Assembly (NCBI GenBank): GCA_944358775.1
Contig: CALVRU010000004.1
Span: forward strand, 1-59,664
Source: an uncultured Bacilli bacterium
GTDB lineage: Bacteria; Bacillota_I; Bacilli_A; RF39; UBA660
Length of the DNA stretch: 59,664 nucleotides
Direction: 5' to 3'
Shown: positions 2,296-56,181 of the stretch, piece after piece
Numbering within the stretch: the first letter of the stretch is position 1
How the letters are laid out: every line of letters starts with the position of its first letter
Program-made: the position numbers and the translations under genes
The notes under the pieces: model-generated
Databases searched by the model: none
The model's input: only the letters and a program-made list of their open reading frames with translations
Told to the model about the DNA's origin: nothing

Positions 2296-2982
2296 ATGGC
2301 AAGGATCAAAAAGAAAAAAACACGTTTGCGAGTGGGACCGGTTTTGATAGTAATCATTTTATTGTCTTTTCTAGGTTGCGGTATTTATTATTTGCTCGGT
2401 ATGAAAATCGAAAATATTATTATCTTGGGAAATGAACATGTCAGTGACGAAAAAATCATTGAAGAAGCGGGCCTTACGGACTATCCGAGTTTCTATTGGA
2501 CAAGTTCCGGAAGTATTAAACGTAAAGTTCTAGCGGATCCGTTGATTGAAAAAGTGACGGTAAAAAAGAAATTCTTTCATGTGATCGAAATAACGGTACA
2601 AGAGTACAAAATGTTATATAAACAGGCGAGTGACAATAAAGTAGTCTTAAGTGATGGTAGTATTTTAATGACGGATGAAAACATTCCCTATCTGCCAGTT
2701 TTGTTAAATTATGTACCGGATACCAAACAAGAAGCTTTTCACGAGGGAATGAACAATATCAAGGATGATATTCGTAATCAAATTTCGGAAATTACATATG
2801 ATCCGAATGACTATGATAAAGATCGTTTTCTTTTACTAATGGATGATGGAAATAGTGTTTATTTGACTTTAACAAAGTTCGATATGATCAATTACTACGA
2901 TGAAGTGTTACCACAATTAGAAGGGAAAAAAGGAATTTTATATTTGGATTCTGGAAATCATTTTCAGATTATGGAATCTTAA
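2296..2982 (+). CDS. divIB: Cell division protein FtsQ/DivIB
   Basis: Basic N-terminus, single TM, POTRA-like segment (IIILGNEHVSDEKII...IEKVTVKK), dcw position after murB. Confidence 0.85.
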   Translation: MARIKKKKTRLRVGPVLIVIILLSFLGCGIYYLLGMKIENIIILGNEHVSDEKIIEEAGLTDYPSFYWTSSGSIKRKVLADPLIEKVTVKKKFFHVIEITVQEYKMLYKQASDNKVVLSDGSILMTDENIPYLPVLLNYVPDTKQEAFHEGMNNIKDDIRNQISEITYDPNDYDKDRFLLLMDDGNSVYLTLTKFDMINYYDEVLPQLEGKKGILYLDSGNHFQIMES

Positions 2983-3067
2983 AGTAGAGTGGTTATTTCG
3001 AATATATTTTAAGTTTTCATAATGTGAGATACAATAATAAATAGGATAATAATGGAGTGATCATTGA

Positions 3068-4821
3068 ATGAAGAAAAAGGGAAAATGGAAAGTACAGTTT
3101 TTGGTTATGGCATTTTGTGTACTTGGACTAGTCGCTGTATTGGTAGGAAGTAGTTATGCCATTTTCTCGGATGTCAGTGATCAAGGAGATTATAATACGG
3201 TGACCGCGGGAACTCTTCAGTTGTCGTATAAGACACCCAGTCACTTAGTTTAAATAATTTATATCCGGTCTCGGATGTGGAAGGAATGACCGGAGAAGGG
3301 TATACCTTTACGGTTCGTAATATTGGAACACTACCAAGTGATTATAAAGTGATGATTCAAGATGATAGTGCGATGATCCAAGCGGATGGTTGTAGTGATC
3401 ATTTAATGCCGAAAGCAAATATTAAAATTAGTATTGATGGAGGAACTCCTTTTTTATTAAGTAGCATTGAAGGAAGTAATTATATGATTACGACGGGCAA
3501 CTTACAACCAGGGGAAAGTGTAACACATGTTGTCAGAGCCTGGATCGATGAAGCAAGTGGAAACGAAATATTAGGAACGCACTTTCACGGGAAAGTAGTA
3601 GTAGAAGGAGTGCAAGGAGAGTTTGTCTATCGTGATGAAAGTGGAGCGAATCCGCCGAAGTTAGTAGAAGGAATGATACCAGTTACATATAATGGAACGA
3701 ACTGGGTCAAAGCAGATGTATATAATGAATGGTACGATTATAATAATCAAGAGTGGGCGAATGCGGTGACGGTAACGGAGGAGAATCGGGCAACTTATAT
3801 GAGTGCTTCTGCAGGGACCGTAATACCAATGGACGATATCAATACAATGTGGGTCTGGCTACCAAGATATGAATATCAATATGCCAATTTAGGAACTCAA
3901 TATGCAGGTGGCACCCAGGATCTTCCAGGAGAAATCAAAATAAACTTCTTAAGTGGAATAAATACGACTCCAAGTGACGCTGCCAATTACAAAGTACATC
4001 CGGCTTTTACGTTTGGAAGTGAAGAATTAACCGGAATCTGGGTTGGCAAATTTGAAACAGGTGGAACTTTAGCAAGTGCTTGTACGAATGAAAGTTGTGA
4101 TATTTCAAATATAGTAATTAAACCAAATGTAAAAATTCTAAATTATCAGAATGTGAGCACATATTTTTATTCGGCTCGAAGTATGCAAATGAATAGTAGT
4201 AATCCATATGGATTTCGTAGTACTTCAGGAAATGTTCACATGAGCAAAAATAGTGAATGGAGTGCCATTGCCTATTTATCCCAAAGTAGATATGGGAAAT
4301 ATGGAAATTCCAAATATACTGGTGCTGACAAAGAAATCGCAATCAACAATTGTAGTAGTTTTATTACGGGAATTGGCGGTGACACGGTGAGTGCCGCGCC
4401 ATCGAGTACTTCTTGTACTACAAATACTTACACGACAGCGAAAGGACAAGCTGCCAGTACGACGGGAAATATTACGGGAATTTACGATATTTCTGGCGCA
4501 GGAGCAGAAACAGTAATGGGAAACTATAATAATCCAATTGGCTCATCCGGTTTTTCTACTATGCCAGAAACTCAATATTATGATCTTTATACCACGACGA
4601 ATTTATCGACGGCGTGTAATGGTGGAGTATGTTATGGGCATGCGTTGAGTGAAACTTCTACTTGGTACAAAGATGCTTCTGTTCTTATAAGTAGTTCAAA
4701 TCCGTGGATCATGCGGGGTGGGGGTGTGACTACGACAAGGCCTGGTACGGGAGCATTCTACATTTCTTATGACGCTGGACCTGGCATTGGCGTAAATTGC
4801 CGTATCATTGTAACGCCATAA
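3068..4821 (+). pseudogene. Frameshifted secreted surface protein: TasA/SipW-type leader, TasA-like domain and C-terminal CLec/DGR-target-like domain (ORFs 3068-3253 and 3277-4821 are one gene)
   Basis: ORF1 ends ...GSSYAIFSD...NTVTAGTLQLSY. The frame of ORF2 is open upstream as DTQSLSLNNLYPVSDVEG from 3232. One base is missing at 3230-3231 (tat aa gac); total 1754 nt = 585 codons minus 1. The C-terminus has PW..RGG...G.F...R. Confidence 0.75.
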
Positions 4822-4856
4822 TATAATATTTTTTAAGAGCGAAACGTCCAAAAATT

Positions 4857-4884
4857 GGAAAGGTGAAAAAAACTTTCCTTTTTT
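4857..4884 (+). terminator. Intrinsic terminator
   Basis: GGAAAG-loop-CTTTCC followed by a T-run. Confidence 0.6.
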
Positions 4885-4939
4885 GCTAGTTTATTATATA
4901 ATGAATAATAGATATTAGAAAATAGAAAGGCGGCTTAAA

Positions 4940-6181
4940 ATGAAAAAGGTTTATACTGGCATCGACATTGGTAGTCATAGTATTAAAATTGTCGTAAATG
5001 AAGTGATTCATCATAAATTTCATGTATTAGCTGCCACTTCTGTACCAACGAAGGGTGTAAAAAGAGGATTGATTCAAGACCCGGATGTTGTCGTGTCGTC
5101 TTTAAAAAAAGCCAAAGAAGAAATTGAAGGAATGTTAGGGGTTTCCATCGATCAAGCAATTGTAGCAATTCCGTCTTTTGATCTTCATCTGACAATAGTC
5201 GAAGGAAAGGTTGATTTACAAGACGATCCAATTACCTCAGAAGATATCAATCGAGCTCTTCAAGATGCCACGTTGGGTAGATTAGAAGAGCAAAGAGAAT
5301 TGGTTACTTTAATTCCGATTGCGTTTCATGTTGACGATAAGGAGGGTGTCAAAGATCCGCGGGGCTTAAGTGGTGATACGTTAGCCGTCAAAGCAGTGAT
5401 GGCAACAGTTCCGAAAGAGATTTTGACGATTCCATTTAGTATTTTAAGACAAGTCGGAATCGAGCCGATCGATATTGCTTTCTCGGAAACGGGTGATTAT
5501 TATGAAGCGAGAAATAAAAACATAGATAGCAAGATTGGGGCCGTTATTAATATTGGATATGAGACGATTAAAGTATCGGTGTTTAATAAAGGAATTATGA
5601 TCAAATCATCTACTTTAAACGGCGGTTCCAAACAAGTCGATCATGATATTCAATATATGTATCATGTCTCGAAAAAAAATGCTCGTTTCTTAAAAGAAAA
5701 TTTTGCGGTTAGCAATACCAGTTATGCAGATGTAAATGATATTATCGAAGTCGAAGATAAAGAAGGAAAAATCATTTCATTAAATCAACTAGAACTTTCC
5801 TCGGTCGTCGAAGCGCGGATCGTCGAAATTTTGAAGTTGGCAAAAAAAGAAATTAGCCTCTTAACAAACCGTGAAATTAGTTATATAATAGTTACAGGTG
5901 GAATAAGCGAATTAGCGGGATTTCAATATGTTTTAGACAATGTTTTGGGCCGGCTTGCGATAACCTTAAATATTACCTCGATGGGTATAAGAAACAATAA
6001 ATATTCGAGTGCTGCAGGACTTACTCGGTATTTTGATGAAAAACTATCGTTGCGAGGAAGAAATTATTCAATGTTAAGTGAACGAAAATCAGTTGAATTA
6101 GGAACTGTGAAAAGAAAAGAATCGAATGGGTCGATGGTTGGAAAGGTCTTTGGTTATCTCTTTGACCACAAGGAAAATTAA
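4940..6181 (+). CDS. ftsA: Cell division protein FtsA
   Basis: GIDIGS actin-like motif and VTGG; directly upstream of ftsZ. Confidence 0.95.
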
Positions 6182-19682: not shown

Positions 19683-21088
19683 TGCCAAAACGTAGTTTAC
19701 GAGAAGAATTTGAACTCGATCAAGAGAAACGAGATCCGATCAAAATTATCTCTGATTATGATATTTTTAAAGATAAAGCATTATTAGATAAATTACGGTC
19801 GAACATTATTCAAAACATCATCGACAATAAAGTGCCGGAAGAGAAACTACTAACCGAATACATTAATGAAGAAATCGACAAGACTTTGGAAGGATACGAT
19901 CTTACTAATTTAGAACGTAGTCACATTTTTAATTTGATTGATAATGAAATCAACGGATACGGTCCTATTACAGAGCTATTAGATGATAAAAATGTGACCG
20001 AAATCATGGTCAATGGACCAGAAGAGATTTACATTGAAATTGATGGTCACGTAATGAAAGATGATACCGTATCTTTTATCAATGCCGATCATATTTTAAG
20101 AACGATCCAAAGAATGGTTCAACCATTAGGCCGAACGATCGATCAAGCAAATCCGATGGTCGATTCGAGATTGCCGGATGGTTCCAGAATTAATGCGATT
20201 ATTCCGCCGCTCAGTTTAAATGGACCAGTACTTACGATCCGGAAATTTAAGGATAGTATGAACGATATTGAGTCATTGATTCGAAATGGTACGTTGACGC
20301 CTTATATGGCCCGTTTTTTAGAGGCATGTGTTCATGCCAAATTAAATATGATTGTCTGTGGTGGTACCGGTAGTGGTAAAACGACACTTTTGAATATTCT
20401 GTCTAGTTTTATCGGTGAAGATGAGCGTATTATTACGATTGAAGATGCTGCCGAATTACGTTTGCATCAAAAACACGTCATCACTTTGGAAACACGGAAT
20501 ATGAATTATGAAAGTGGTGGCGAAGTGACGATTCGAGATCTTGTCATCAACTCATTGCGAATGCGACCAGACCGGATCATCGTCGGCGAAGTCCGTGGCA
20601 AAGAGGCATTCGATATGCTACAGGCAATGAATACAGGACATGAAGGAAGCTTAACAACCCTTCATGCGAACAGTCCGATCGATGCTCTAAACCGTTTGGA
20701 AACAATGGTTTTAATGAGTGGATTAGAAATTCCGATCCGTGCGATTCGGGAATATATAGAAAATGCCATCGATATTGTCGTAAATATCGAACGATTGGGC
20801 GACGGTCGTAGAAAAGTAACGAGCATTTGTGAAGTGATCGGCTTTCAAGGAGATGCCATTCGTTTAAAGGAAATCTTTGCTTTTAAAGAACACGGCTTAA
20901 CTTCGACCGGGGAAGTAAATGGCGAGTTCATATTATATAATTATATTCCAGAAAGTTATAAGAAGATGAAAGCCAAAGGAGTAAATTCGGTTGACGATAT
21001 TTTCGATGAAGTGAAAAAAATATTAGACAAAAAAGCAAAATTAGAAGAAAAGAAAAAGAAAGCAAAACCGGTCAAAGAAAAGAAATAG
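19682..21088 (+). CDS. cpaF: Tad pilus assembly ATPase CpaF/TadA
   Basis: [47 protein letters not shown]. Confidence 0.95.
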
Positions 21089-21106
21089 AAAGAGGGTGAA
21101 GCGAAT

Positions 21107-22117
21107 ATGCCAGAAGGATACAATATTTCTTTGTTTATCTTGCAAATTATCATTATTTTTATCCTATTTGCCATTATGATATGGCTTTTAAAACTAGTAC
21201 GGGCAATTCGCTATGAAAAACGAATTAGTAAATACACGATTGATTCGATTAAAGAAGATTCTCTTTCTTTTTTCGATCGGGTAAATATCGCTTATTTTGA
21301 GATTTGTCATAGATTATCAAAGGCTTTGAAAAAAATTCGAATTTTTGATACGTACAGTAAAAAGTATGAGAAATATATCGATGGTTCGAAACAGATTCGG
21401 GAAGAAGCGATGGATTATATTTCAACCAAAATTCTATGTGGTATTTTAGTATTTTTGATTGTATTGGTATCCGATGTCCTTCAATATAAACCGATCTCGT
21501 TGATTCAAGTGATCTATTCCTTATTGATTGGTTTTTTCTTACCAGACTTATTCTTGATTTCTCGTAACCAATTCCGAAAGAGACAAATTGAAAACGATTT
21601 ATTAAAATCGATTATTATCATGAATAACGCATTTAAATCGGGTCGCAGTACGATGCAGGCAATTCAAATTGTATCGGAGGAACTCGACGGACCATTAGCG
21701 GGTGAATTCAAAAAAATGTATATCGACTTGACTTATGGTCTCAGCTTGGAAACGGTATTCACGCGGTTTGCAAAGCGAGTAAATATCGAAGAAGTGAAGT
21801 ATATTACAACCTCTTTGACGATTTTAAATAAAACAGGCGGCGATATTGTAAAAGTGTTTTCGTCGATTGAACGATCTTTCTTCAATCGGCGCAAGTTACA
21901 ACAAGAGTTGAAATCTTTGACGGCTTCCGCTCGGCTTATTTTTAATATTTTGGTAGTATTACCGTTTGTTTTATTTTTGATGATCTTTATCTTAAATCCA
22001 ACCTATTTTAATCCGTTATTTACAACGCCGATTGGGCTTGTCATCTTACTTGTTATCGTCTTATTGTATACGACATATATTTTTATCATCCGACGGATTA
22101 TGAAAGTCGAAGAGTAA
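21107..22117 (+). CDS. tadB: TadB-like platform protein (T2SS F domain)
   Basis: NAFKSG...GPLAGEF...GGDIV pattern, C-terminal TMs. Confidence 0.85.
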   Translation: MPEGYNISLFILQIIIIFILFAIMIWLLKLVRAIRYEKRISKYTIDSIKEDSLSFFDRVNIAYFEICHRLSKALKKIRIFDTYSKKYEKYIDGSKQIREEAMDYISTKILCGILVFLIVLVSDVLQYKPISLIQVIYSLLIGFFLPDLFLISRNQFRKRQIENDLLKSIIIMNNAFKSGRSTMQAIQIVSEELDGPLAGEFKKMYIDLTYGLSLETVFTRFAKRVNIEEVKYITTSLTILNKTGGDIVKVFSSIERSFFNRRKLQQELKSLTASARLIFNILVVLPFVLFLMIFILNPTYFNPLFTTPIGLVILLVIVLLYTTYIFIIRRIMKVEE

Positions 22118-22129
22118 AGGGGGATATGC

Positions 22130-22837
22130 ATGGCTAAGAAAAAAATAGAAGTATCGCGAAAAATTTATAGTCAAAAGAGTATCGATAAGATGCAAGCAAG
22201 AATCGATTTGCTCGGTTATCGGGAAAGTTATAGTGCGATTATTTTCTTAAATATTCGTCTTCTTTCTTCCACTTTTCTCTTTTTTATGATATTATATCTA
22301 TTCGAATGGGGATATGTTTTAGCACCTTTAATTACGTTTCTTTATTATATTTTTCTACCTAAGATTGCGATTGACCAAAAGGTGGCCAAAAGAGGATCGC
22401 GGCTAGATAAAGAAGCAATGTATTTTTTCGAAGTATTAACGTTATCGTTAGAGTCGGGAAGAAATTTACAAAGTGCTTTAGAAGTAACAGCTTCGAATAT
22501 CGATTCGGAATTATCGAGTGAATTTAAACAAACCTTAGAAGAAGTTCGTTTTGGTAAAAGTCTCAACGAAGCATTGGATGATTTAAAAAGACGAATTCCT
22601 TCCGATACAATTAACAATATTATTTTAAATATTTCCCAGTCGAATATTTTTGGTAATAGTATTATTGATACGTTATATAATCAAATCGATTATATTCGAG
22701 ATAAAAAAGTGATGGAAACACGGGCGAAGATGAGCAAAATACCGATTCAGATCAGTGTGGTATCGGTTATCTTCTTTATTCCAATTTTGTTATTGTTAAT
22801 TTTATCGCCAGTAATCATCAGTTATATTGTAGGATAG
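22130..22837 (+). CDS. tadC: TadC-like platform protein (T2SS F domain)
   Basis: LSLESGRNL...EVRFGKSL...FG pattern, C-terminal TM. Confidence 0.85.
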   Translation: MAKKKIEVSRKIYSQKSIDKMQARIDLLGYRESYSAIIFLNIRLLSSTFLFFMILYLFEWGYVLAPLITFLYYIFLPKIAIDQKVAKRGSRLDKEAMYFFEVLTLSLESGRNLQSALEVTASNIDSELSSEFKQTLEEVRFGKSLNEALDDLKRRIPSDTINNIILNISQSNIFGNSIIDTLYNQIDYIRDKKVMETRAKMSKIPIQISVVSVIFFIPILLLLILSPVIISYIVG

Positions 22838-26114: not shown

Positions 26115-26429
26115 ATGTATTGGGATTTAATTATTATTGTAGCAATTATTTTAGTAGCAGTGATCTGTTTGCGACGGTTTTCTAGTTTTGTCTATATCGT
26201 CGGAATCATCGATATCTTCTTACGATTGGTTACATTTATTGCCAATAATCTAGGTGTACCAGAAATCACACAGCTAGTAAATCGCATTGGCTTTCCAAGT
26301 AGTATTCCATCTCTGATTGGAAAATATACGGATGGTATTTTGACGACTGTTTTAGTATGGATTTTTGTTATAATTATGATCGTATTTGAATTTTATGTGA
26401 TTCGGACGTTTATTCGTAAGAAAAAATAA
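26115..26429 (+). CDS. Hypothetical membrane protein
   Basis: 104 aa, about 3 TM segments, basic C-terminus. Confidence 0.75.
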   Translation: MYWDLIIIVAIILVAVICLRRFSSFVYIVGIIDIFLRLVTFIANNLGVPEITQLVNRIGFPSSIPSLIGKYTDGILTTVLVWIFVIIMIVFEFYVIRTFIRKKK

Positions 26430-26481
26430 TATGTCAAAAAATGGAAATAACTTCCAGTGAAAGAAGTAATTTATCTGTGAT

Positions 26482-26516
26482 AAAATGGAAAGAGAATAGA
26501 ACCTCTTTCCGTTTTT
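26482..26516 (+). terminator. Intrinsic terminator
   Basis: AAAATGGAAAGAG-aatagaac-CTCTTTCCGTTTT. Confidence 0.7.
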
Positions 26517-26537: not shown

Positions 26538-26987
26538 TTGGGAGTTTACGATATGTCTGCTGGAGCAGGTGAATATGTGATGGGGGTACTTGCTGATTCA
26601 AGCGGAGCACCAAGAAGTGGGAATAGCGACTCAAGGAATTCTGGATTCAATGGAACGTTAGAAAATGGAAGTAAATATAGTTCAGGAATTGCTTTTCCAG
26701 AAGCCAAGTATTATGATTTATATACTTCAATGAACCAAAGCTCCAATGATGATAGTTTAAGCGCTACGGCATGCAGTGGAGGAATTTGTTATGGACATGG
26801 GTTAAGTGAGACTGCAGGATGGTATCAAGATTATTCCGTTTTTGTTAGTCAAACTATGCCTTGGGTTCTCCGCGGCGGTGGCTGTTCTAGTAGCCCGCCG
26901 ATTGCTGGCATCTTCTACGCCGGCCACAACTACGGTTACACGGACAGCAACGTCGCGTCTCGTGCTGTGTTGGTCCCAGGAGCGTAG
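26538..26987 (+). pseudogene. Orphan C-terminal cassette of a CLec/DGR-target-like surface protein, paralogous to the 3' end of 3277-4821
   Basis: Shares G(I/V)YD(I/M)S, E.VMG, PE..YYDLYT, TAC.GG.CYGH.LSET..WY.D and PW..RGGG with the upstream gene. No leader; similarity begins abruptly at ~26538. Confidence 0.75.
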
Positions 26988-26990
26988 CGA
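26868..26990 (+). other. DGR variable-region (VR)-like segment
   Basis: 29 codons at 26868-26954: 19 end in C, 7 in T, 3 in G, none in A; 54/87 G+C. This is the pattern expected from adenine-specific mutagenesis of AAC/AAT template codons. Confidence 0.7.
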
Positions 26991-54397: not shown

Positions 54398-54913
54398 ATG
54401 GGGAGGAATCGGAATGGTTTTACTTTAGTGGAATTGTTGGCAGTCATCGTGATTTTAGGAATTATCATGTTGATTGCAGTTCCAAATGTGGTCGGTGTGA
54501 TCGATAATAATCGTAAGGAAACTTATTTATCGGATGCCAAAAAGATGGTCACCATGGCCGAGTATGCAACGCGCACGAATACTTCAATCTTAATGCCCAA
54601 TAACGGGGAAGTAACGGTGTTACGCCTTTCTTATATTAACAATGGAGATCTTACAAAGGATCCAGAAGGAAACAATTATGATACGTATCGTAGTTATATT
54701 GCGATTAAGAAAGGTACCGATGGCTTTGATGAGTATTATGTTAATTTAGTAGGTGGGACAACTGAAAAAAACAGAGGAATTAATTTGACTAAAGTAGATG
54801 ATCTAAATGGCGATAATCGCTTTAAAATGGTTGTAAAAAACTTTACAATTCGCTCTAGTAATGACGAGATAAAAAATGCACTTGGTGTTAGTACGGTGCA
54901 TGAATATCAATAA
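54398..54913 (+). CDS. Type IV prepilin-like protein
   Basis: G/FTLVELLAVIVILGII N-methylation motif. Confidence 0.9.
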   Translation: MGRNRNGFTLVELLAVIVILGIIMLIAVPNVVGVIDNNRKETYLSDAKKMVTMAEYATRTNTSILMPNNGEVTVLRLSYINNGDLTKDPEGNNYDTYRSYIAIKKGTDGFDEYYVNLVGGTTEKNRGINLTKVDDLNGDNRFKMVVKNFTIRSSNDEIKNALGVSTVHEYQ

Positions 54914-54984
54914 ATTAATAATATTTTATTGATGAAATTTGTCGATTATGATATGATGAATATGAAAATAAGGAGGAAAAGTAT

Positions 54985-55554
54985 ATGAAGTTAAATAAGA
55001 AAGGATTCACGTTGATCGAACTATTAGCAGTAATTGTTATTTTGGGAGTGGTTTTAGCAGTTGCGATTCCAAGCGTCAACCGTCTTTTAACGAATGCCAG
55101 AAAAGATACCTATATTGACAGTGCCAAAACGTATATTTCTGGGGCAAGAAACGCCGCTGCTTCTGGTCAATTCTTTTTACCGATCACTTCAGGAGAAATC
55201 ACAGTGATTCCACTTGAGGCAATACCACTTGAAAATGACACTTACCAAAGCTCATTTGGAAAAGCTTGGAACTCAGCAGTTAGTTATGTCGTGATTGCGA
55301 ATGAAGGAACGGAAGAATATCCAACATATGTTTATTATTATGCATCATGTGATGCCGATGGAAACTATGTTAATCTCACAAAAGAAAGTGATCTTGTAAG
55401 AACAAGCGTACAGCGTGGTACTCATAACATTACATCAATGACGGCAACAAGTGCAGAAGAAAAAAGAGAGAATGTTACTTTAAAAACTGGTAGTGGAAAT
55501 TTGACGATTGGTACGAACTCTACTTTTACAGCATATATTTATCAAGCGTCTTAA
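54985..55554 (+). CDS. Type IV prepilin-like protein, tandem copy 1
   Basis: KG/FTLIELLAVIVILG motif. Confidence 0.9.
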   Translation: MKLNKKGFTLIELLAVIVILGVVLAVAIPSVNRLLTNARKDTYIDSAKTYISGARNAAASGQFFLPITSGEITVIPLEAIPLENDTYQSSFGKAWNSAVSYVVIANEGTEEYPTYVYYYASCDADGNYVNLTKESDLVRTSVQRGTHNITSMTATSAEEKRENVTLKTGSGNLTIGTNSTFTAYIYQAS

Positions 55555-55605
55555 TTTGATTTAAAATAGGCAAAAATAAATGTGACAATAGGATAGGAGA
55601 AATTT

Positions 55606-56181
55606 ATGAAATTAAATAAAAAAGGGTTTACCCTAATTGAATTATTAGCAGTAATCGTTATTTTAGGTGTCGTATTAGCAGTGGCGATTCCAAGTGTCAA
55701 CCGACTTTTGACGAATGCCAGAAAAGATACCTATGTTCAAAGTGCAAAAACTTATATTTCAGGAGCAAGAAATGCCGCTACTTCGGGTCAGTTCTTCTTG
55801 CCAATTACGACGAGTGAGATTACGATTATCCCACTTGAGGCAATTCCACTTGAAAATGACACTTATAAAAGTTCGTTTGGTAAAGCTTGGAATTCATCAG
55901 TTAGTTATGTCGTAATTACAAATGAAGGAACGGAAGAATATCCACAATATATTTTCTATTATGCTTCTGCAGACGTAGATGGAAACTATGTTGATTTGAC
56001 AAAAGAAAGCGAACTTACTCGAACAAGTGTAAAACGTGGTACTCATAAAATCACTGCCATGACGAATGAAACAGAAAATGTAGAGGAAGTAAAATCAGGA
56101 GTAAAACTTACAACTAGTAGTGGTGATTTTTCAATAAATGGTGTGACTACTTTTACAGCTCATATCTATAAAGCTTCTTAA
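55606..56181 (+). CDS. Type IV prepilin-like protein, tandem copy 2
   Basis: First 43 aa identical to copy 1; diverged C-terminus. Confidence 0.9.
   Translation: MKLNKKGFTLIELLAVIVILGVVLAVAIPSVNRLLTNARKDTYVQSAKTYISGARNAATSGQFFLPITTSEITIIPLEAIPLENDTYKSSFGKAWNSSVSYVVITNEGTEEYPQYIFYYASADVDGNYVDLTKESELTRTSVKRGTHKITAMTNETENVEEVKSGVKLTTSSGDFSINGVTTFTAHIYKAS

Follow-up and report, generated by a model that had tools for sequence, protein, structure and literature searches.

A probable pseudogene of a large lectin-fold protein family with a putative TasA-type leader, in a strain-variable slot between divIB and ftsA of an uncultured Bacilli bacterium

Introduction

TasA fibres of Bacillus biofilms assemble by donor-strand exchange (PMC9674648), and TasA-like bundling pili have been described in archaea (PMC9245690). 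The C-type-lectin fold, for its part, is the usual scaffold of the variable proteins of diversity-generating retroelements (DGRs; PMC6328139). Here, we examine a broken gene whose relatives resemble TasA at one end and DGR variable proteins at the other. It lies in a 59,664-nt stretch of DNA from an uncultured Bacilli bacterium (assembly GCA_944358775.1, contig CALVRU010000004.1, positions 1 to 59,664; hereafter the window), where two open reading frames (ORFs) are found head to tail between the division genes divIB and ftsA. Phase-variable surface-protein families, such as Vlp of Mycoplasma hyorhinis, which has a homopolymer in its promoter spacer, and opc and porA of Neisseria, offer a third term of comparison.

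The reading that we favor, with a probability of about 0.7, is that these ORFs are the remains of one member of a multi-copy family of secreted surface proteins, a pseudogene that was inactivated recently and is carried in a strain-variable slot between divIB and ftsA. The lesion is ordinary and the family is the interesting part, since it combines known parts in an arrangement that we did not find described. Indeed, our literature search retrieved no account of a family joining TasA to a lectin fold, or of DGRs in these lineages.

Results

One Gene Split by the Loss of a Single G

The frame of ORF2 opens at 3232, where it is preceded by a TAA at 3229-3231, and its mechanical ORF call begins at the GTG at 3277. 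This frame is at -1 relative to that of ORF1, both being open only in 3232-3250. Since the frames differ by -1, one restored base gives a joined protein of 584 aa, as was proposed in the initial annotation of this DNA. The place of the missing base could be fixed by comparison with homologous genes. At the junction, five homologous DNAs read TCGTATGAAGAY and the window reads TCGTATAAGAC; in the alignment, TCGTAT-AAGACACCC of the window faces TCGTATGAAGA(T/C)ACCC in five out of five homologous genes. Because all five have the extra base, a G is missing in the window between 3229 and 3230, and the lost codon is GAA (Glu). At the protein level, the junction reads LQLSYEDTQSLSL (LQLSYEDTQSL) in all 12 close homologs retrieved. 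Intact colinear homologs of 581-617 aa are 68-81% identical to the joined protein at 100% coverage, and both ORFs map onto them without overlap or gap. Moreover, the Pfam profile PF12389 (gathering cut-off, 22.5 bits) scores 17.6 bits with ORF1 alone, has no match in ORF2 alone and reaches 24.5 bits with the joined protein, the match (residues 16-91) crossing the junction. Judging from these alignments, ORF1 and ORF2 are the two halves of one 584-aa gene from which a single G was lost.

As a result of the loss at 3229/3230, a ribosome starting at the ATG at 3068 stops after 61 codons. The remaining 529 codons are devoid of a signal peptide, and no leader-bearing product is possible from the copy of the window strain, which is off. 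One may ask whether the split is bridged by programmed -1 frameshifting or transcriptional slippage, or whether the two ORFs work as separate products. The stretch open in both frames (3232-3250), together with the intact upstream region and start codon, would be compatible with such recoding. However, neither a slippery X XXY YYZ heptamer nor a homopolymer, a repeat or a downstream structure was found at 3221-3253, and all relatives encode the junction in one frame through the extra G. As for separate products, ORF2 lacks a signal peptide and ORF1 amounts to a leader plus about 30 residues. We consider it hardly credible that the gene is expressed in either of these ways. The lesion context, TCGTAT[G]AAGAC, is neither a homopolymer nor a short tandem repeat, in keeping with the initial remark that slipped-strand variation is an unlikely cause. 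In annotation terms, ORF1 and ORF2 should form one pseudogene entry rather than two hypothetical proteins.

The Deletion in Independent Metagenomes

The window sequence occurs in chicken-gut metagenomes. At the population level, the evidence consists of Logan contigs rather than raw reads, in four runs (X1, X3, X4, and X5) from three studies. The contig pieces that cover the lesion (3154-3309 in X1 and X4, 3166-3309 in X3, 3185-3309 in X5) all lack the G and are identical to the window, apart from one mismatch in X4. They are about as deep as the single-copy contigs on either side, the piece of X5 being somewhat deeper. Close to the lesion, the window is marked by SNPs of its own (3184A, 3196T, 3205C, 3267G, and 3270C). 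Contigs that do have a G after 3229 show 10-14 other differences, that is, they are paralogs. The deletion is real and not an assembly error. An error in the source of the window would find some ground in the repeat-rich nature of the region, where short-read assemblies break at about 3134-3374 (L089, L094, L096). Nevertheless, since window-identical contigs without the G come from four runs and three studies, at single-copy depth, such an artefact can be dismissed, its probability being close to nil.

A Strain-Variable Slot Between divIB and ftsA

The coordinates of the locus are collected in Table 1. A scan of genome contigs returned no genome of the same species (best match, 53% identity), and the sister-strain evidence comes from exact-protein look-ups of DivIB, FtsA and homologs. 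When the window is compared with two of the contigs so obtained (L095 and L100) using blastn, homology ends at 2977 and returns at 4849, and 7 nt (AAATAGA) stand in place of the whole segment. In these empty-site contigs, FtsA is identical to that of the window and the divIB-ftsA spacing is 96 nt. The last codon and the stop of divIB in the window (TCT TAA) come from the variable segment; empty-site strains have a 227-aa DivIB ending in ...ATGGAATAA. A third state is seen in L101. There, the slot follows a 228-aa divIB, the murG-divIB region being 98.9% identical to that of the window at the DNA level, and it contains an intact gene for a 568-aa protein (P0020). This gene encodes a different N-domain, and its 3' part shares 88.6% identity with window 3626-4875. 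Upstream of P0020 are found a repeat of about 90 nt and a promoter whose TTGCAA and TATAAT elements enclose a G10 tract. Four other loci (L086, L087, L091, L092) share the start of this haplotype. The divIB-ftsA interval is a strain-variable slot that is empty, occupied by the broken allele or occupied by an intact alternative allele.

Table 1. Features of the divIB-ftsA region of the window.
Feature	Position	Strand	Description
divIB/ftsQ	2296..2982	+	228 aa, left flank; POTRA_1 and FtsQ_DivIB_C matches on the identical protein in other contigs
Strain-variable segment	2978..4848	+	1871 nt; contains the entire broken gene together with the region upstream of it; delimited by blastn against L095 and L100
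Upstream region	2983..3067	+	putative promoter; ribosome-binding site GGAG at 3053-3056; no poly-G tract, unlike the alternative allele
ORF1	3068-3253	+	61 aa: signal peptide, 24 mature residues, 6 out-of-frame codons, TAA
Signal peptide, putative SipW/TasA class	3068..3160	+	MKKKGKWKVQFLVMAFCVLGLVAVLVGSSYA / IFSD; predicted cleavage point
N-terminal extension and predicted Ig-like beta-sandwich N-domain	3161..3636	+	residues 32-58 of low confidence, domain at ~59-190; holds the lesion
Lesion site	3229..3230	+	one G lost between these bases; GAA (Glu) reduced to AA; -1 shift
ORF2 frame	3232-4821	+	residues 56-584 of the ancestral protein and stop at 4819-4821
Predicted C-type-lectin/FGE-like domain	3655..4818	+	residues ~197-584, ~390 aa
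Hypervariable C-terminal tail	4699..4818	+	NPWIMRGGGVTTTRPGTGAFYISYDAGPGIGVNCRIIVTP; most divergent part between paralogs
Terminator-like hairpin with A-run and T-run	4849..4885	+	RNA fold -9.8 kcal/mol, z -1.6; also in L095 and L100
ftsA	4940..6181	+	right flank; SHS2_FTSA and FtsA Pfam matches on the identical protein

This agrees with the initial view of the interval as an insertion site, and the finding at the same locus, in another sample, of a single intact protein instead of two separate ones goes with the view of a split gene. On the other hand, the gene had also been credited with a terminator of its own. Because homology with the empty site resumes at 4849, the hairpin that follows is a resident element of the divIB/ftsA intergenic region and was not inserted, which withdraws that claim. 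A consensus terminator scan of 2700-5100 called nothing, the hairpin included. At the other end, the evidence for a promoter is a weak sigma-70-like match (9/12) at 3024-3053. As GC content and skew of the segment are like those of the surroundings, we rejected the possibility of a foreign origin.

Metatranscriptome contigs cover parts of the 3' half of the gene, leaving the lesion uncovered, and run into ftsA. This suggests read-through transcription into ftsA, with the reservation that depth is low and that carry-over of DNA is possible. One of the RNA contigs, from run X24, covers window 4651-4993 with an allele resembling that of L088 and extends from the tail across the hairpin into ftsA.

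The repeat of about 90 nt deserves a separate description. In the window, it occupies 26427-26516 and contains two hairpins. It has 8-10 times the flanking depth in metagenomes, i.e. 8-10 copies, and it follows divIB, at 89% identity, in the alternative haplotype (L086, L087, L091, L092, L101). Directly behind it in the window, at 26538-26987, is an orphan 149-aa C-terminal fragment of a paralog, beginning abruptly at 'GVYDMSAGAGEYVMG', with 38% identity to residues 471-584 and a tail rich in NNC codons.

A Very Large Family of Mosaic Proteins

When 8000 candidate homologs of the joined protein were scored, 5271 reached E 1e-3 or better, and none of these is named. Many copies were found by the genome scan in gut metagenome-assembled genomes (MAGs) of rabbit, Hadza and other origin that bear the labels uncultured Bacilli, Mycoplasma or Tenericutes, and up to more than 25 family copies are present in single MAGs (rabbit, human Hadza, chicken gut). 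The closest intact relatives of the broken gene stand at other loci: between prs and priA, as a tandem pair between a HisKA-HD histidine kinase gene and valS, and between an NTP_transferase gene and ligA. Overall, close paralogs are flanked by housekeeping genes at at least three other loci.

Comparison of these relatives reveals a patchwork. Over residues 1-240, the protein of the window is 92-100% identical to P0001, and over residues 320-560 it is 95-100% identical to P0019, whose N-domain is unrelated. Paralogs at different loci share about 97% identity over their first ~260 nt. Finally, in L082 and L083, which represent the same prs-priA locus, the flanks and the N-half are identical and the entire C-half is different. 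By these identities, family members are mosaics of shared modules.

Other forms were encountered along the way. P0082 and P0084 (381-388 aa) are short forms in which residues ~195-420 are missing and an N-domain 92-100% identical to that of the window is fused straight to the last ~190 residues of the head. In addition, a 216-aa protein made of the leader and N-domain only (MEEKRNKKKESLAVFLLLLSLALVTVSTTYAFFTY...) is encoded at L095:2338-2988, just upstream of the counterpart of the murG gene of the window, and also in L086, L087, and L101. With neither a lectin head nor a Pfam match, this protein is a candidate for the major stalk or fibre subunit.

A Lectin-Type Head With a Hypervariable Tail

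An AlphaFold2 model was built from 48 family members (mean predicted local distance difference test score, pLDDT, 84.8). It predicts a helix at residues 7-32, a low-confidence stretch at residues 29-55 within which the lesion falls, a beta-sandwich to about residue 185, a linker and a large domain at ~197-584. The latter is predicted with the greatest confidence, block-mean pLDDT values being mostly 90-98 and the lowest blocks 84-89. With the whole model as a query, the best match of Foldseek in the PDB is 5vf4, TaqVP, the DGR variable protein of Thermus aquaticus (E 1e-9, probability 1.00). Matches in BFVD include an FGE-like phage protein and phage tail collar fibres (E 1e-8 to 1e-5), and PF03781 (FGE-sulfatase) is weakly matched in 10 of the 48 family members. 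A lectin-like C-terminal part, which the initial annotation had proposed, is well supported as a C-type-lectin/FGE-like fold.

Identity to close homologs is lowest in the last ~60 residues, where it drops to 12-48%. Compared with the L101 allele, the tail shows 16 nt and 10 aa differences, and the preceding 300 nt show 6 nt differences. Within the allele of the window, the tail is stable: across five studies and L088, it shows synonymous single-nucleotide polymorphisms (SNPs) only.

The fold and the position of the variable stretch raise the question of whether the gene is a DGR target. The initial annotation took it for an older, drifted one; alternatively, it could be active or recently active in trans, the tail being rewritten from a distant template repeat. 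Both the best PDB match and the best viral matches, FGE-like tail-fibre proteins, speak for such a view, as does the C-terminal location of the hypervariable stretch, and NNC codons abound in the tails of some paralogs: in L082 and L083, 18-22 of 42 third positions are C, and in the fragment of the window (26850-26987) 20 of 46. However, the tail of the broken gene has C at 8 of 41 third positions, which is no NNC bias (12% gene-wide). No repeat of 4560-4830 or of 26538-26990 was found in the window, no adenine-biased imperfect repeat on either strand of 1.07 Mb (the window and 101 loci), and no other contigs of at least 80% likeness over 4657-4870 in four metagenomes. Similarly, no DGR reverse transcriptase motif was found in the window or 85 loci with a crude regular expression, no hidden Markov model search being made. 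The 16 tail differences from L101 go in all directions, are not adenine-linked and include 7 at third positions; those in an 87%-similar contig over the tail of the orphan fragment also run in all directions. Furthermore, the differences between L082 and L083 cover the whole C-half, not a variable region of ~100 nt, and the restriction of the tail to synonymous SNPs across five studies also speaks against a DGR target. The resemblance of the fold to DGR targets is real, and DGR membership lacks support. For a DGR located beyond the window and working in trans, there is no support, and we hold it to be very improbable.

A Putative TasA-Type Leader and N-Domain

The leader comprises residues 1-31 and ends in ...GSSYA|IFSD, Y30 and A31 being nearly invariant across the family. 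The profile TIGR04088 (cognate_SipW) matches residues 18-50 over its positions 3-34 of 34 with 16.2 bits (E 0.009), and its cut-off of 19 is not reached. PF12389 is found at E 0.01 or better in 11 of the 48 family members; in the joined protein, its match is marginal and covers profile positions 12-78 of 196 only. Concerning the N-domain, a model of this domain alone has a pLDDT of 67, and Foldseek returns weak matches (E 5e-3 or worse), many of them to donor-strand pilins (CS20, FimA, PapA), which are the best together with MSP domains. Searching the PDB with a profile of the N-domain found no sequence, and searching it with the sequence of the joined protein found antibody heavy chains only, at chance level (E 0.025 or worse). 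An NCBIfam search of the whole protein gave nothing useful. Among the genes listed as neighbours of the family loci that were looked up, none encodes an S26 peptidase, the genome of the window being represented by 59.7 kb. The sequence evidence for the TasA label is marginal. The TasA/SipW-type N-terminus announced initially is supported to that marginal extent, the joined protein being just over the cut-off of PF12389 (24.5 versus 22.5) and just under that of TIGR04088 (16.2 versus 19).

Judged from translations only, window 18173-22837 is a Tad/Flp-type pilus cluster with two TadE/TadG-like small proteins, a CpaE-like ATPase, a CpaF/TadA ATPase and TadB- and TadC-like membrane proteins. At 54398-56181 are three tandem genes with type IV prepilin-type N-termini (KGFTLIELLAVIVILG), the second and third being close paralogs.

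Recurrent Knock-Outs and Poly-G Promoters

The loss of the G is not the only inactivating change seen in the family. L088 represents the same locus with 97.1% identity. It has the G and carries instead a CAA to TAA change at window 3613 (Q183*); in runs X5-X7, yet another allele, the third, is present there and has C at 3613. In L082, a neighbouring paralog of 824 aa (L082:8255-10729 versus L083:8265-10739) differs from its L083 counterpart at 3 of 2475 nt, one of these being a GAG to TAG change (E136*) that splits the L082 copy into 135 and 685 aa, a very recent knock-out within the N-domain. Since all three stops fall in the N-domain, inactivation may be frequent and perhaps even favored.

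With the G restored, the allele of the window and that of L088 give a ratio of nonsynonymous to synonymous substitution rates (dN/dS) of 0.13, with dS 0.13 versus 0.046 in the adjoining divIB. Such a dN/dS implies either purifying selection until recently or refreshment by conversion from live paralogs. The second possibility leads to another reading of the gene, as a silent or archival cassette, a broken copy kept as donor or recipient in gene conversion with expressed paralogs, which conversion of its 5' module could reactivate. Parallels are pilS, vls, MgPar and the msp2 pseudogenes. The strong mosaicism, with clustered substitution tracts, fits this reading, and so do the near-identity of the first ~260 nt among paralogs of separate loci, a low dN/dS despite the lesion and the fact that the two alleles of the slot share their 3' 1250 nt (88.6% identity) and have unrelated 5' modules. 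The orphan 3' fragment at 26538-26987, behind a repeat that also follows divIB in the alternative haplotype, can be added. Nevertheless, no recombination event has been caught, the allele of the window is identical in several samples, and most family copies seen are full-length with their own promoters, unlike the classical layout, in which one expression site is accompanied by many silent cassettes. We consider a cassette role to be unlikely, and retain that of a recently inactivated pseudogene.

No run of eight or more G or C exists anywhere in the window. Among the related loci (L005-L081, L092:1156-1164, L101:5958-5967), 51 poly-G tracts (G8-G13) were found in 1.0 Mb of about 35% GC. Most are placed between TTGACA and TATAAT, ~50-70 nt upstream of family genes, as part of a conserved promoter (...AAAAAGTTGACATG9TAGTTTTATAAT...). 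Seen from the genes, 30 of 74 family N-termini have such a tract, mostly of 9 G (range, 8-11). By analogy with classical phase-variable promoters, changes in tract length would alter the length of the promoter spacer.

Discussion

Several observations weigh against the interpretation of the locus as a recently dead copy of a surface-protein gene, or against its parts. Logan contigs drop rare variants, and a minority of molecules at this locus may contain the G. L088, from which the Q183* allele and the dN/dS are taken, is one megahit contig through repeat-rich DNA whose N-domain stretch resembles that of the paralog P0002, so that its nonsense codon may come from a chimeric assembly. The low dN/dS, the intact upstream region and the intact signal peptide would equally suit a copy that serves as a recombination partner. 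RNA contigs indicate that the region is not transcriptionally silent, and say nothing about translation. Finally, the 50 best structural matches to the N-domain (with the model of pLDDT 67) do not include TasA, and the functional model of a fibre stalk bearing a lectin head draws on fold and family resemblance only.

That model can be outlined as follows. Intact members would be exported by the Sec pathway, and a signal peptidase of SipW type would cut them at SYA|IFSD. The N-domain, which is Ig-like and TasA-like and has a floppy strand at its N-terminus, would anchor or polymerise the protein, perhaps through the donor-strand complementation seen in TasA fibres, and the head of C-type-lectin fold would bind a ligand through a surface formed by the hypervariable C-terminal ~40 residues. 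Diversity would arise not from a DGR but from exchange of modules between paralogs combined with on/off switching, through the poly-G promoters of many relatives and recurrent stops in the N-domain. Taken as a whole, these features could make up an undescribed variable-adhesin system of uncultured gut Bacilli, in which a TasA-like stalk or fibre module of donor-strand type is joined to a lectin head of DGR type, varied by DGR-free module exchange among dozens of paralogs and switched by poly-G tracts and stops. The divIB-ftsA interval would be a cassette slot with the ~90-nt repeat at its border, either empty or holding allele A or allele B. We put this forward tentatively, as a possibility that is at present rather less probable than its negation.

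The frameshift itself is of little import, as it marks a dead copy. What matters more is that a very large unnamed family joins a putative TasA-type leader and stalk to a lectin fold of the type used by DGRs, with no DGR seen. If its members are surface fibres or adhesins, they are probably a main interface with the host or with phages in these uncultured gut Bacilli of small genome. If this is true, the machinery of variation (module swapping, poly-G promoters, recurrent knock-outs and the cassette slot in the division cluster) is directly testable.

Comparison With Known Systems

With TasA and camelysin (CalY), the family shares a leader of the type ...SYA|xFSD, PF12389 spanning the leader and the first ~60 mature residues. 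It also has a predicted beta-sandwich N-domain whose N-terminal strand is modelled with low confidence, as a donated strand should be, and, in sister contigs, a stand-alone 216-aa protein limited to the N-domain beside murG. It departs from them in that the profile is matched over part of its length, TIGR04088 remains below its cut-off and TasA lies outside the top 50 structural matches. No sipW or tapA is found beside the family loci whose neighbours were listed, and the family protein carries a lectin-fold head of ~390 aa that TasA lacks.

With the DGR variable proteins (TaqVP 5vf4, Mtd, TvpA) and PF03781, the likeness is that of the head. The Foldseek match comes with a target TM-score of 0.45-0.47; the hypervariable stretch is C-terminal; the landmarks GxYDxSG...W..RGG...GF.. 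are present, as is the weak PF03781 signal. In contrast, neither template repeat nor reverse transcriptase nor adenine pattern was found in the window and loci searched, sequence identity to TaqVP is 13-14%, and variation in the family spans whole modules, by paralog exchange.

The remaining comparison is with phase-variable surface-protein families of host-associated bacteria, the Mollicutes among them. The copy of the window differs from these in having no homopolymer in its promoter or coding sequence, its lesion being a plain deletion; switching was not observed, and the proteins, which are no lipoproteins, are built differently. The family is like them in that numerous paralogs are dispersed among the housekeeping genes of a small genome, in its frequent broken copies and presence or absence according to the strain, and in the G8-G11 tracts that 30 of 74 family genes in related MAGs carry between TTGACA and TATAAT.

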